Virus record (IMG/VR): IMGVR_UViG_2718218305_000010
DNA length: 47,284 nucleotides
DNA from: a virus
Taxonomy: Duplodnaviria; Heunggongvirae; Uroviricota; Caudoviricetes
Reading direction: 5' to 3' (one strand)
Every line of letters begins with the position of its first letter. Positions within the stretch are counted from its first letter, which is position 1. A program made the position numbers. Positions 42,001 through 47,284 of this stretch are shown here, one piece after another.

Positions 42001-45000
42001 CACCTGGTGCTGCATGGCTTACCCCCTTGCTGACTGGTTTTACCTGTGCCCTGACGTGCTGCACGTGACGGGCAAATTTCTGCTCCCACTGAACCTGCGT
42101 GAAAACCTTCCCCTCCGCCATCCAGTAATCCCGGAATGCGGCAAGCTCAGCAGGTGTAAACTCAGGCTCAGGCAGAGCCATACCCCACAATGCAGCCCGC
42201 TGTCGAAAATCCAGCGACGGCCGCCAGACACCAGTCATCGGAAATTTCCCGATCGGTTCGCTCAGGCCATCCGGGTATTCAGGTTCTGCTGTCTGCAACG
42301 GCGCGCCATTCGACTCACTGGCTGGAGCACTCTCGCGCATGCGCGCGTTATGTGTGGGGTTTAATTCTTTATCTGTATCTGTATCTGTCGTGACTTGTCG
42401 TGACATATGCGTGACGCGTCGTGACTCATCGTGACAATCAGTGTTCTGCTCCCGCAGTCTTTCCCGCTCCCGCTGCGCTCTCTTGCGCTCTGCCGGGGAT
42501 TTTGCGGTTTGCGAAACATTACCGTTATCCTCCTTCATCACCTGGCGTTTTTCCCATCCGGAAATAAGATCGCCATCCAGAACTCGCCCCTGCATTGCAT
42601 GCAAAATTGAATCAATCACGTCTTCCGTCACATCAAGCGCACTTGCTAAATCTTCCGTCGTGACATCAATGTGACCACGTAGTGACTCGCCGTGACATTT
42701 CGTGACATTTCGTGACGCACTCACCAGAAGGTGGATATACACCGCCATCACTGTTGCGATTGGCTGTCCTGAGACCCTGGCAATGGTTCGCCATTTGGGA
42801 TCATTTGGCATGTCATGCCACAATCTGAGCCAGGCATTAGCCATACTCACCTCATCTGATACCGAACTTTACCCTCGAACATCCGGAAGAAATCCGGCAT
42901 GAATATTGTTGGTCAATGCACGACAACAGCATTACCAGGCTGACCCCCACTGTTAGTCAGGGTGCCCCAGGCGATCGCCGCTGCGACAAAATCATCCACA
43001 TCTTTCACCAGCCGATCCCTCCGTTCGACGATCTCACGGTAATATTCAGAGCTGTGACTGCGCATACGGGCCACCAGCAGAGGCGGCATTGCCTTTTCGA
43101 TCGCCGGTAACAGAGCCTGCATTTTTTCAACAGCATCAGGGGTGTCTTTATCCAGCCAACGGAAAATTTTCTGGGTATTACGAGCCAGGGCTTCCGGATG
43201 GCTGTCGTCGTACAGTTCCGGGAACGTCATCCCCAGTTCGAAATAAGTCCGGGCTATTTCAGCTGCAGGAACTTTCTCACCATCAGGATATGCCCAGGCA
43301 TTCATCGCCATGCGGATGTGCTCATGTTTGATTTTCATGAATCATTTGCCTCTTGATGCTTCGGGTATGATCGTTTTCGTCATTTGGTTGCTTCATCGAC
43401 ATATTCTGCGAATAACATGACGAGCGTCGTAAGTATGTCCAATCAACATCAGGACGAAGTTCTTCACACAGGACACCACCTTTTGTTGCTCGTTCAATCG
43501 CAGGACATCTCTCAGCAGGCAACTGACGTACACCTTTGATCCATTGATTTACGCTTGGAGGAGATACACCTAAAAGCCTAGCCATTGCTGATTGCCCACC
43601 GACAACAGCACAAGCTCGTTTGAATGAATAGTTATCTTTTTTCATCGAATGAACTCCAAAAAACACACAATAATATTAGGCTTAGCCTAATGCAATTGTC
43701 AATAGGCTATGCCTAACGCTTCGAGAGTAGGTATTGCCTAATGCGATGCGCATAGGAGACTATTAAGCAATGCTTAGTGGTAAAGACTTAGGCCGAGCGA
43801 TAGAGCAGGCCATTAACAAAAAAATTGCATCAGGAGCCGTCAAATCAAAGGCGGAAATCGCACGTCATTTCAAAGTCCAACCACCATCAATCCATGACTG
43901 GATTAAGAAAGGTTCGATAAGTAAAGACAAACTTCCAGAACTATGGCGTTTCTTTTCTGATGTGGTTGGTCCAGAGCATTGGGGGCTTAACGAATACCCC
44001 ATACCAACCCCATCCACTTCAGATACAAAAAGTGAACTTTTAGACATAAACAGCCTTTATCAAGCCGCCTCTGATGAAAAAAGAGCAATTGTGGCTTTCC
44101 TCTTATCTGGAAATGCTACGGAGCCTAGTTGGGTTGATCATGACGTTCGTGCCTACATTGCCGCAATGGAAATGAAGGTAGCTAACTATCTGAAAAATCA
44201 AGAATCAAAACGGAAAAGCCAGAACATCACCAAGACAGGAACTTAAACTTATATGGTCCGACGGGAAATTCCTAGTTCCCGTTAGTTAACTCCTACTACC
44301 TCTCCCACAAACCATCACCTATTAGGTCGCACCCAAATCATTAGGCGTAGCCTATTGACAAGCAATTAGGCATTTCCTATAGTTTTCCCATACCAACCCA
44401 TCCCGTCCCACACAATACAGGGCAATACCTAGAGTTACCCGGCAGTGGTCAGGGATTAAGTAGCCAGCCCGAGGCGTAAGAACATGACGGCAGGGTTCAA
44501 CTTTAACTATGCAGCAGGTTTTTGTTCCGCTACCCCGGCGTTAAGGGGATATGAGGTCAGCATGGATACTCTTGATCTTGGCAACAACGAATCTCTGGTG
44601 TGCGGCGTGTTTCCCAACCAGGACGGCACGTTCACCGCGATGACGTATACCAAAAGCAAAACGTTTAAAACCGAATCTGGCGCGCGTCGCTGGTTAGCAA
44701 GAAACTCTGACTAATGAAATCTGGTAATTAAGGAATCCTCCACGGGGGGAGAGTGGTGCACACGCGCCGGACACAAGCAAGCATCCGGCATGCTCTTTAA
44801 CAATCTGGATATCCATAACAGTAAAAATCTACAGATTGCCGTTCAGTTTTCTGGCCAACTCTTCAATAGATGGAGGTGATACGTAATCCGGATTTTTATT
44901 CATAAGAAACTGATTTTCACAGTACAGGCACCTGCTTTTATGAAAAAATTCATATTCTCTAACCGGGAATGGCTGAAGTATCGATACTATCTTTTGTCCA

Positions 45001-47284
45001 AAACATTTTGGACAAAGATGCATGATTATGCTGCCGCCGTTCACGGTTACCTCCTTCGAGTACACAAAAGTTCCCGACTCAAGTTGGCTAAGGATATAAC
45101 CTTCCGTCTGAGCCTCAAAGTTTTCAAATTCTGCAATTTTAGCTTTGAGAGAAGCATTTATTTCTTGATAAGTGCCCACCAGCTCAACGAGAGACACGCA
45201 TTCGCGCTGAATAGATGCAAGCTTTGAGTTCAGTTCACCAATAGCCGCATTTACTTCAGCTTGAGTTTTTGCCTCGTTCATTAGTTTTGCAATCTGGGCG
45301 GTTTCACGAATAGCCGTCATTGCTGCCGTTAATTCAGCGATCACATTCAATACTCTTATTGTTGTTGGGGATATCCAGATTAACAAGATCCTTGTTGTTG
45401 GGGAATAACGGGGACCACCTCGCCTGACGTGGTAAAAAGCAGGCACACAACACGAAAGCACACGGCGAGGGACACCATTAAATGGTGGCTTAAGCAATCA
45501 CGCGAAGCGCAATCTGCCATTATGACCGATGAAATCCCGTTAGATGATGCACTGTTACAATTGCGGGAATTTATCGACGAAAACTCCGGTGAATTTTTTG
45601 TTCAGGTCTGGGGAAATGGAGCCAACTTCGACAACACGATTTTGCGCCGTTCATACGAACGGCAGGGGATCCCCTGCCCGTGGCGTTACTACAACGATCG
45701 CGATGTACGCACAATCGTTGAGCTGGGGAAAGCCATAGACTTCGATGCCAGAACGGCTATTCCATTCGAAGGTGAGCGCCATAATGCACTTGATGACGCC
45801 CGTTACCAGGCAAAATACGTTTCAGTTATCTGGCAAAAACTGATCCCGAGTCAGGCTGATTTTTAATGTTCAACCGTCGCCAGTTGTCGTTGATATTCTG
45901 CAACTGGCGCGTTCCGGAGTGATAGCCATGAGCGAACAGTACCTGATAACGCTCGACGAGTGGAAACCAAAACGGTTCAGTCTCCCAATAACAAACACTA
46001 CCCTGGTGAAATACGGAAAACTAGGATACATCGTTCCAAGACCACAAAAAATTCGTGGGCGTTGGCTGATAGATCGCCGAGCAGTATTTGTTGGGCCTGG
46101 TGAAACGGGAATTGCGCCGGAAATTCATACTGGCGATGATGATGCACTGAAGGAGATTTTAACTCATGTCACCGAGGCCACGAAAAAACAGCACTGACGT
46201 AGCCGGTCTTTACGAAAAGTTTGATCGCAGAACTGGCAGAGTTTACTACCAGTATAAAAATCCTGTGACTGGAAAATTTCACGGACTCGGAACAGACAAA
46301 GGTAAGGCAGAAAAAATCGCTTCCACAGCCAATCAGCGAATAGCTGCAGCAGAAGCTGAATATTTCATGCGCAAAATTGATGAAAGTCCGTCAGCAACAA
46401 AACGTCGGGGTATCAGATTAAAGGCATGGGTTGATCGATATCTGAAAATACAGGACACGCGACTGAAAAATGGAGATATTGCAGCTACAACTCACAAAGA
46501 AAAAACTCGAATGGCTGCATACCTGGTTTCCCGTCTGGGAAACCACCCATTGAAAGAACTGGAAGTAAGAGACTTTGCATTAATACTGGATGAGTGGCTG
46601 GATAAAGACATGGTCAGTACAGCGAGAGTAAATCGTGGATTATGGGTTGATATTTATAAAGAAGCACAGCATGCAGGGGAAGTTCCTCCTGGATGGAATC
46701 CTCCGGAGGCTACCCGTAAACCGATCCCTAAAGTAACCAGAGCCAGGCTCACCATGGAAGACTGGCAAAAAATTTACAATGCAACGCCTGAAAAACACTT
46801 TATCCGTAACGCAATGCTTCTTGCGATTGTTACTGGTCAGCGCCGTGATGACATTTGCCACATGCGTTTTTCAGATGTGTGGAACGAACACTTGCATATC
46901 ACCCAGGGAAAAACCGGAATGCGTCTGGCGTTACCGCTTACACTACGCTGTGATGCCATTGGGATAACGTTAAAAGAAGTTATTGATGGGTGCCGAGACA
47001 GAATATTAAGTCCATATCTAATCCATAGTCGGCACCAGAAACAACCGAAGCCGATGAGTAAAGACAACCTGAGCGACTACTTTGCCAAAGCACGGGATCT
47101 GGCTGGGGTAATTCCACCAGCAGGAAAAACTCCGCCAACATTTCATGAACAACGCTCTCTATCAGAACGGCTGTACCGTGCACAGGGTATCGATACAAAA
47201 ACATTACTAGGACATAAAGTCCAGGCAACCACCGATCGCTATAACGATACTCGAGGTCAGGAATGGGTTAAGTTGGTTATTTGA

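Follow-up and report, generated by a model that had tools for sequence, protein, structure and literature searches.

We analyzed a 47,284-nucleotide stretch of viral DNA (Caudoviricetes; IMG/VR record IMGVR_UViG_2718218305_000010; hereafter the window) and focused on a 661-bp cassette (44792–45452) that has been left intact, antisense to the early-left operon of a prophage. Compared by sequence and predicted fold, the open reading frame (ORF) in this cassette is a diverged new member of the Rip1 (ring interacting pore 1) family in every respect by which the family can be recognized in silico. Its likeliest function, to which we assign a probability of roughly 70%, is abortive-infection defense expressed from the prophage, in combination with an antisense-regulated control module of the sieB type. 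The pseudoknot, hairpin and repeats of that module, and the cargo slot that they mark, are a more novel lead than the Rip1-like gene itself. If our reading is right, a gene labeled 'hypothetical protein' in every O157:H7 genome examined gains a testable role: abortive infection by a single pore-forming protein, as with Rip1. Such a role would bear on phage therapy and biocontrol of Shiga-toxin-producing Escherichia coli and on mutual exclusion among O157 prophages.

A Rip1-family gene on the antisense strand

The initial annotation described a 163-amino-acid (aa) coiled-coil/zinc-ribbon protein encoded antisense to its neighbors. That architecture held up: the AlphaFold2 model (mean predicted local distance difference test score 88.6) has helices at residues 2–16 and 20–71, followed by a six-stranded domain with four cysteines at residues 76–142. 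The length did not, since twenty homologues begin MIAEL, which moves the start from ATG at 45320 to GTG at 45344 and gives 171 aa. The Prokaryotic Genome Annotation Pipeline (PGAP) likewise places the start at this GTG.

Pfam yielded only sub-threshold coiled-coil noise for the protein, and PADLOC (2023) gave no match, which is uninformative because that release is older than Rip1. PHROGs assigned it to phrog_1244 (function unknown, E 2.7e-56). Remote homology, the check proposed with the initial annotation, placed the zinc-ribbon protein with Rip1. A single-sequence phmmer search of the PDB had one significant match, chain L of entry 9oox (Rip1, E 7.2e-7), whose title is Escherichia phage HK446 Rip1 in complex with Enterobacteria phage T6 small terminase. 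A profile built from 21 homologues matched the same chain at E 8.6e-16, with positions 7–152 aligned to residues 17–160 of 164 (144 residues). When the predicted model was compared with the PDB by Foldseek, the top match was chain M of 9oox (E 5.6e-7, probability 1.0, TM 0.58/0.72 over 120 columns), and the second-best match had an E-value of 0.07.

By BLASTP, the protein is 30% identical to gp30 of the P. aeruginosa phage JBD30 over 153 residues (E 6e-20), 32% identical to HkaP of HK620 over its full length (E 2e-21) and 27% identical to HK446 Rip1 (E 5e-13). In all three alignments the two CxxC pairs are conserved, as is an (S/T)ILQ motif. Rip1 of HK446 and the orf25-type proteins of P. aeruginosa phages JBD30, DMS3 and D3112 resemble the window protein in length (~165 aa), in the CxxC...CxxC arrangement and in fold; at 27–30% identity to HK446 and JBD30 Rip1, the window protein belongs to a separate enterobacterial clade, that of phrog_1244. 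HkaP, which also occurs in HK629 and HK630, represents a different subfamily. A profile search of 1.84 billion representatives returned 2275 family matches at E ≤ 1e-3, nearly all of them 145–180 aa long and aligned end to end. The window gene therefore combines full-length similarity to a characterized Rip1, the Rip1 fold and the format of a small, single-gene prophage system. It does not belong with SieB: BLASTP against lambda SieB gave a 39-residue alignment at 26% identity, SieB has a long hydrophobic stretch near its N-terminus that the window protein lacks, and SieB and Rip1-like proteins fell into separate clusters when cargo proteins were clustered. The features of the region are listed in Table 1.

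Table 1. Features of the early-left region, in window coordinates.
Feature	Position	Strand	Remarks
RacR-type repressor, 158 aa	43770..44246	+	RefSeq: identical gene = racR; left border
Early-left pL-like promoter, TTGACA-17-TATAGT	44355..44383	+	11/12 consensus match, promoter scan
DUF1391/YdaF-like ORF	44484..44714	+	76 aa from first ATG; PGAP start 44562, 50 aa
Inverted-repeat 3' arm, AATCTGGATATCC (+ strand)	44802..44814	.	Perfect 13-nt inverted repeat around rip1-like gene
Rip1-family gene, 171 aa, GTG start	44829..45344	-	N-terminal helices and C-terminal CxxC...CxxC beta domain
Shine-Dalgarno, AAGAG	45353..45357	-	8 nt 5' of GTG; read from sequence
Proximal direct repeat, TCCCCAACAACAA on gene strand	45359..45371	-	Exact repeat; predicted first bases of rip1-like mRNA
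Inverted-repeat 5' arm, GGATATCCAGATT	45369..45381	.	Covers -10 to +2 region
Predicted extended -10, TGT TAATCT	45377..45385	-	Aligns with P22 -10 TAAACT (promoter annotated in NC_002371.2)
Hairpin with GGGG tetraloop	45389..45414	+	Arms 45389-45399 / 45404-45414; strand of early-left direction only
H-type pseudoknot block	45415..45444	.	Gene strand: S1 GCCTG 45444-45440 / CAGGC 45426-45422; S2 CCAC 45432-45429 / GTGG 45418-45415
Deletion junction, ~2.9 kb lost	45468..45471	.	Alignment of L008, vB_EcoS-640R1 and window
Exonuclease 3' remnant, 132 codons, pseudogene	45471..45866	+	Source: ~813-aa Exonuc_VIII + Rv2179c-like protein
Excisionase	45919..46197	+	Right border; RefSeq annotation of identical EC4115 locus
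Integrase	46166..47284	+	Right border; potC next in O157 genomes

As a 2026 review recounts the work of Patel et al. (Nature 651:1060), Rip1 is a single, prophage-encoded protein that is nontoxic alone; phages escape it through the portal protein (Pseudomonas phages) or the small terminase (coliphages); 12 Rip1 subunits around an 11-mer small-terminase ring form a membrane-permeabilizing pore that causes premature lysis; and homologues are widespread in Proteobacteria, mostly borne on prophages (PMC13434031). Applied to the window, this suggests that the lysogen would make the Rip1-like protein at a low and harmless level. When an invading phage reached late expression, its small terminase or portal ring would template a membrane pore of Rip1-like subunits, and the pore would kill the cell before progeny could mature or be released.

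The initial annotation listed lack of conservation of the zinc-ribbon ORF among the results that would refute it, and the ORF proved to be conserved. Relative to the copies in E. coli, Salmonella, Enterobacter and Symbiopectobacterium, the ratio of nonsynonymous to synonymous substitution rates (dN/dS) is 0.14–0.24, which indicates purifying selection across genera. The cassette was found in 654 of 5426 complete E. coli genomes (about 12%), almost always at full length. Hundreds of O157 genomes carry an intact copy of the ORF at 100% identity. The cassette adjoins an unrelated cI repressor in phages PhiR29_1 and PhiR49_1.

A different function is conceivable. The ORF could be Rip1 by descent but act as a superinfection-exclusion or regulatory protein, its zinc ribbon binding nucleic acid or another phage protein, or it could be inert in a decaying prophage. 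Identity to HK446 Rip1 is only 27%; HkaP, the closest named relative, has only the annotation 'putative superinfection exclusion protein'; the N-terminal helices have low mean hydrophobicity and moderate amphipathicity (hydrophobic moment about 0.4 over residues 7–30); and in the EC4115 copy of the prophage, rusA is truncated and the portal gene is frameshifted. However, the protein aligns over its full length with a solved pore subunit and shares its fold of helices plus beta domain, the amphipathicity profile of HK446 Rip1 is similar, selection across genera is purifying, and the ORF is unchanged in hundreds of O157 genomes. We consider this alternative improbable and favor the Rip1-type defense role.

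A shared promoter module and cargo slot

The place that the gene occupies is that of other phage exclusion genes. In HK446, the characterized Rip1 (gp37) fills the identical slot, between N and the cIII/kil genes; as in the window, it is encoded antisense to its neighbors and has the same block upstream. The hkaP gene of HK620 is antisense in the equivalent place, also between N and cIII/kil and behind the same promoter block with paired repeats, and sieB is antisense at this slot in lambda, P22 and Rac. Homologues of the window gene in Salmonella, Cronobacter, Enterobacter and Symbiopectobacterium are antisense between the repressor and the kilR/gam/recT/exonuclease genes, and a Rip1-like gene stands alone on its strand between repressor and recombination genes in eight genera. 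In JBD30, the homologue is antisense and separates the small terminase gene from the large one, in agreement with the Pseudomonas Rip1 locus given in the review (PMC13434031). SieB is itself expressed from the prophage and aborts superinfecting phages (PMC12197685); although the protein is unrelated to that of the window, it shares the slot and orientation, a homologous promoter, the paired repeats, the hairpin and the pseudoknot. Since position and orientation are common to HK446 Rip1, HK620 hkaP and the three sieB genes, the earlier suggestion that this is a hot-spot for exclusion or defense cargo was right: a Rip1-family protein sits in the sieB/Rip1/hkaP slot, and the same block precedes at least 28 cargo families.

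The 110 nt preceding the gene have homologous counterparts in front of sieB (lambda, P22 and Rac), HK446 Rip1 and HK620 hkaP. The aligned regions share one order of elements: a conserved ~35-nt GCCTG-N14-CAGGC-NN-GGTGG block, a repeat near -60, a -10-like hexamer, a repeat near -27 and a Shine-Dalgarno sequence, with the proximal repeat at -27 from the start codon in all lineages. Equivalents of the window's -10 hexamer are TAAAAT in HK446 and TATAAT in Salmonella. In the P22 RefSeq record (NC_002371.2), the sieB promoter is annotated and the sieB RNA starts at the first base of the second repeat. By alignment, the rip1-like gene would be driven by the same promoter module as sieB of P22 and lambda. 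Transcription in the window would then start near 45371, and the distal repeat would cover the -35 region.

The repeats themselves had been described as tandem copies at 45360–45405, at the junction of the antisense gene. The pair is real: TTGTTGTTGGGGA occurs exactly twice, at 45359–45371 and 45392–45404, with ~0.07 matches expected by chance in the window and two or more copies in 2 of 100 shuffles. The copies are not tandem, as their starts are 33 nt apart, and they are not at a junction, as they lie inside the cassette, 65–110 nt to the left of the deletion junction described below. The idea that they are scars of a deletion or insertion was rejected, both on this distance (65 nt) and because the repeats also occur in prophages with intact early-left regions. 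From these comparisons, the repeats are part of an old, widely shared control module and are not related to the deletion. Their sequence varies by lineage (TACCCCTACAG, TCCCCAACAACAA, TTCCACAGTCAA, CCCCAATGCAA and CCCCCACAA), with TCCCCAACAACAA in the window clade versus TACCCCTACAG in HK446 Rip1, and the copies match within each lineage. Because the copies match within lineages and differ between them, their identity appears to be under selection.

The cargo behind the block is diverse, with at least 109 distinct proteins in at least 28 clusters. The Rip1 superfamily contributes 34 sequences in three clades and SieB contributes 25; other cargo includes a 144-aa family (30 loci), 66-aa CPxCG zinc-ribbon proteins, a 106-aa membrane protein and many singletons. 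Pfam and PADLOC searches with ten of the other cargo families gave almost no matches. The sieB position can thus be viewed as a cassette slot with a shared control module and dozens of unexplored cargo genes, and it offers a cheap, sequence-anchored route to defense and exclusion genes.

Two layouts of the module were seen. In type A, to which the window belongs, the block comes before the paired repeats and the promoter. In the shorter type B, promoter elements can be read in the block itself (-35 TTnACC, 16 nt, TGg TATnCT), and a hairpin, a Shine-Dalgarno sequence and the ATG come next. The 66-aa proteins, which have two CPxCG motifs and begin M..KFSCPECGGE, stand behind type B blocks at loci L002 (~2440–2680, minus strand), L037, L120 and L166; in L002, the record annotates a hypothetical gene on the opposite strand and not this ORF. 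A second, more diverged block match was present in L166, L024 and L073 (full-length) and in L128 and L316 (partial), so one prophage can hold two cargo slots. In two HK620-type loci, L070 and L086, hkaP has been lost between 7-nt microhomologies (CCTCTTC / TCACCCC), leaving an empty slot of the block plus about 70 nt, in which the promoter block runs straight into the terminator region that lay beyond the gene.

The rip1-like gene lies between the arms of a perfect 13-nt inverted repeat, whose 5' arm overlaps the predicted extended -10. This inverted repeat is absent from the HK446 and HK620 cassettes and kept in five genera, including the Salmonella, Cronobacter, Enterobacter and Symbiopectobacterium cassettes. 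Outside the window's Rip1 clade, it was seen only once, with a 98-aa ORF. No compensatory variants of it were seen across the cassettes examined. It may act through RNA pairing, as a protein site or as an inverted second promoter core. On the plus strand, the region of the 3' arm resembles an inverted copy of the promoter core. Bracketing by repeats, of an integron-like kind or like that of miniature inverted-repeat transposable elements, was rejected as a general rule for these cassettes: other cargo had only chance-level direct or inverted matches, and a significant flanking inverted repeat was found only with window-type Rip1 cargo.

A candidate regulatory RNA module

The block upstream of the gene can be folded as an H-type pseudoknot. 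A scan of viral contigs for the block gave at least 120 stretches, and a second set was gathered by repeat pairs alone to avoid circularity. In the repeat-pair set, helix S1 occurs as GCCTG/CAGGC, GCCGG/CCGGC, GCCTT/AAGGC and GTCTG/CAGAC, with CCCGG/CCGGG in Rac, and helix S2, whose 5' arm lies within the S1 loop, occurs as CCAC/GTGG, CTAC/GTAG, CCTC/GAGG, CCGC/GCGG and TCAC/GTGA. In a plain alignment of 60 sequences by MAFFT, pairing holds in 97.6% of cells, and five of nine pairs show changes on both sides; on a model-fitted alignment, six of nine do. None of 500 shuffles reached the observed pair changes, and slid partners paired in 16–51% of cells. An alignment fitted to a model with S1 only made S2 an independent test, and three of the four S2 pairs showed compensatory changes. 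Two interleaved helices, each with compensatory changes, identify the block as an H-type pseudoknot at the level of sequence covariation. These counts were taken from alignments because a naive search for any pseudoknot does not discriminate (63% of shuffles were positive).

The covariance model matches the window at 45412–45460 on the minus strand with 58.4 bits. At the gathering threshold, Rfam has no match to the hairpin/pseudoknot region in the window, in L008 or in L015, and a search of 44700–45520 relaxed to E-value gave only chance-level microRNA and lncRNA matches (E 0.4–3.5). The canonical block is present in prophage regions of at least 15 Enterobacterales genera. Exact copies of the lambda-type block were also found on tiny contigs of unrelated assemblies (Nocardioides, Paenibacillus, Bradyrhizobium, Enterococcus and others; loci L352–L354, L363, L365, L368, L378, L379, L383, L386, L388 and L391). 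Several of these contigs have coverage near 1 in their names, and the copies look like contamination with lambda DNA rather than true occurrences.

Next to the pseudoknot is a hairpin whose stability depends on the strand. The distal repeat makes up most of its 5' arm, the loop and the first base of its 3' arm. RNAfold gave -11.8 kcal/mol on the plus strand versus -5.6 kcal/mol on the gene strand for the same 43-nt stretch, or -1.7 kcal/mol for a 32-nt segment, an asymmetry that arises because three of the pairs are G.U. The same asymmetry occurs, with other repeat sequences, in the Salmonella, L022 and L076 lineages, and among 59 diverse segments the antisense strand was the more stable in 46. 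Type B hairpins have 14 different stems and a mean z of -2.6. RNAalifold missed the variable hairpin on a MAFFT alignment of short leaders, which is not structure-aware.

We propose, tentatively and at less than even odds, that the 13-nt repeats belong to a larger, hitherto undescribed regulatory RNA module, which flags a slot for defense cargo in lambdoid prophages across Enterobacterales, and that a phage early transcript or a sas-like RNA uses this module to switch the abortive-infection gene off. The module is ~90–110 nt long and consists of the H-type pseudoknot, the GGGG-loop hairpin, the promoter and a duplicate of the predicted mRNA 5' end; its cargo includes SieB, three clades of Rip1 and no fewer than 25 other families of small proteins, most of them without annotation. 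The antisense RNA carrying the hairpin would come from pL read-through on prophage induction or, as a sas-like RNA, from a related phage entering the cell. The loop and 5' arm of its hairpin would be complementary to the 5' end of the cargo mRNA, of which the proximal repeat is the complement of the predicted first 13 nt, and the pseudoknot would stabilize the 3' side of the RNA. Pairing would silence the defense gene when the phage's own early operon fires.

This model would account for the identity of the repeats, since the loop copy must match the 5' end of the cargo mRNA, and for the strand specificity of the hairpin. It would also explain why the gene is placed antisense in the early operon, as a prophage going lytic would shut down its own suicide gene. 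In IS10, the loop of an antisense stem-loop (RNA-OUT) pairs with the 5' end of its target mRNA (RNA-IN). The likeness is in the proposed logic only, as there is no sequence relation between IS10 and the window module; unlike in IS10, the loop copy in the window is a duplicate that lies 33 nt away from where a true antisense sequence would be, and a pseudoknot comes after it. To our knowledge, silencing of antisense-embedded defense genes during prophage lytic growth has been addressed so far only for P22 sieB, esc and sas. If correct, the model would give a general answer to how an induced prophage escapes killing by its own defense gene, and the block may serve as a sequence tag for finding new defense genes.

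For P22 sieB, a sas antisense RNA of 105 nt has been described (PMC12197685). In P22, the outer edge of the pseudoknot also lies 105 nt from the ATG of sieB, which is suggestive only. In the rip1-like gene, neither an internal Esc-like start nor a P_sas-like promoter, as in P22 sieB, was identified. A literature search found nothing relevant on hkaP, nor on sieB together with a pseudoknot.

Several observations weigh against our reading. Identity to the characterized Rip1 proteins is just 27–32%, and the Rip1 mechanism is known to us at second hand, from the review (PMC13434031). The -35 of the window promoter is poor (TTCCCC), a consensus scanner called no promoter and no terminator for the cassette, and we saw no convincing internal antisense promoter by eye in the first 40 nt of the rip1-like gene. 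No U-tract follows the pseudoknot, and its wobble pairs (three G.U versus two C.A) do not settle which strand forms it. Once composition was corrected for, the difference in hairpin stability between strands was borderline across the 59 lineages (Wilcoxon p 0.06).

One alternative is a function in the sense RNA, with the repeats, hairpin and pseudoknot forming a structured 5' leader of the cargo mRNA, for translational control or as a sensor of a ligand or protein, transcribed from a promoter upstream of the pseudoknot. The three G.U pairs of the pseudoknot favor the sense strand, -10-like hexamers often lie 0–7 nt upstream of S1, and in type B the hairpin comes directly after the block, its 3' arm extending into the Shine-Dalgarno sequence and ATG. 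However, the annotated start of P22 sieB RNA is downstream of both pseudoknot and hairpin, and in the window lineage the sense hairpin barely exists (-1.7 to -5.6 versus -11.8 kcal/mol). Moreover, the type B block reads as a promoter whose start would fall within the hairpin, and the flanks upstream of the block are not conserved. We regard a sense leader as quite unlikely.

A second alternative, also unlikely though somewhat less so, is that the block and repeats have no function as RNA. They would be promoter DNA and a homology linker for cargo swapping, with the second repeat a relic of promoter duplication. In favor of this view, cassette similarity to unrelated phages (PhiR29_1 and an O103 prophage) begins 8–11 nt upstream of the block, at least 28 cargo clusters stand behind it, loss of hkaP has left empty sites, and type B has a good -35 and extended -10. 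Neither promoter nor linker DNA, however, needs the pseudoknot helices and the adjacent hairpin to keep pairing through at least eight independent double substitutions, nor does it explain why the two repeats remain identical to each other while diverging between lineages.

Prophage setting and the early-left deletion

Across 43700–46200, the window is 100% identical at the DNA level to a prophage of O157:H7 E. coli (strains EC4115, EDL933, TW14359 and others), and 266 complete genomes hold at least 80% of this stretch. In EC4115, the integrase adjoins potC and the opposite end of the prophage adjoins potB. The prophage is Rac-like and lambdoid and sits between potB and potC; the region studied here is its early-left arm. 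The racR region has 86% DNA identity to that of the K-12 Rac prophage, and the immunity region is Rac-like, with RacR and, on the other strand, YdaS/Cro-like and YdaT/CII-like genes.

As the initial annotation stated, only three ORFs lie between the repressor and xis/int: the DUF1391 ORF, the antisense gene and an exonuclease stump. This minimal early-left region is explained by comparison with relatives. To the left of the junction, the window matches an O55:H7 prophage (L008) at 98.7% identity up to 45470. From 45469 on, its DNA matches the 3' end of a 2442-nt gene, the exonuclease gene of phage vB_EcoS-640R1, at 99.9% identity. Beyond the junction point, L008 continues with DicF (4869–4920 in L008, absent from the window), dicB, a DUF1482 gene and a full-length exonuclease. 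At the crossover, the parents share only GG (2–3 nt of microhomology). Genes lost in the ~2.9-kb deletion are DicF, dicB, ydfD (DUF1482) and 2 kb of the exonuclease 5' end. On this alignment, the short early-left arm is the product of one illegitimate-recombination deletion and not a designed arrangement; the exonuclease stump and the lost recombination genes are ordinary prophage decay. The rip1-like gene predates the deletion, since the intact relatives L006 and L008 already carry it.

The exonuclease had been described as a small gene lacking its Exo I motif. The motif is indeed missing, as the Pfam match spans only positions 47–177 of the 177-position Rv2179c-like DEDD domain and excludes the Exo I region. 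However, the ORF is no small gene lacking one motif: it retains the last 132 of 813 codons of a Qin/CP-933P-type exonuclease (annotated 'exodeoxyribonuclease VIII'), and both Exonuc_VIII and the first 46 DEDD positions have been lost. In the full-length 813-aa protein of vB_EcoS-640R1, these domains occupy residues 57–189 (Exonuc_VIII) and 632–803 (DEDD). The window ORF is thus not a complete, functional Rv2179c-like DEDD exonuclease with an Exo I motif, and RefSeq/PGAP annotates the identical EC4115 sequence as a pseudogene with a missing N-terminus. The 145-aa exonuclease ORF first proposed does not stand, as its first 14 codons (45429–45470) are non-exonuclease sequence.

The 76-aa ORF, for which homology had also been left to establish, is DUF1391/YdaF-like (Pfam PF07151, E 6.6e-30; phrog_751, E 6.9e-45). 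It is the counterpart of Rac ydaF (89% DNA identity), whose neighbor ydaG is absent here. Read directly from the sequence, operator-like TAGGC-N-GCCTA repeats overlap the strong pL-like promoter. Inverted repeats of the form TAGGC-N3/4-GCCTA flank racR at 43676–43741 and 44341–44379, where they overlap the divergent early promoters, and they are probably RacR-type operators. In the xis/int segment (45919–47284), PHROGs gave phrog_629 (E 5.2e-26).

The EC4115 copy also holds nleL, espN, espK and IS2 in addition to the truncated rusA and frameshifted portal gene. The window is collinear with it apart from two additional segments, 13247–14552 and 33169–35839. The first (1.3 kb), missing from EC4115, contains an IS3-family frameshift pseudoknot (ALIL, Rfam RF01497) at 13581–13697 and is an insertion sequence (IS) particular to this strain's copy of the prophage. 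The second (2.7 kb), likewise missing from EC4115, contains an STnc100 small RNA (RF02076) at 33944–34110. The genes on either side, rusA and DUF6645, carry the annotation 'truncated' in EC4115, so EC4115 has a second deletion that the window does not have. Rfam matches also identify two further RNAs: at 37734–37908 (minus strand), a sok antitoxin RNA of a hok/sok module, with hokD annotated in EC4115, and at 10397–10463 (plus strand), a sar antisense RNA beside an ant antirepressor gene, the sar and ant pair being a P22-type immI region within the tail-gene area.

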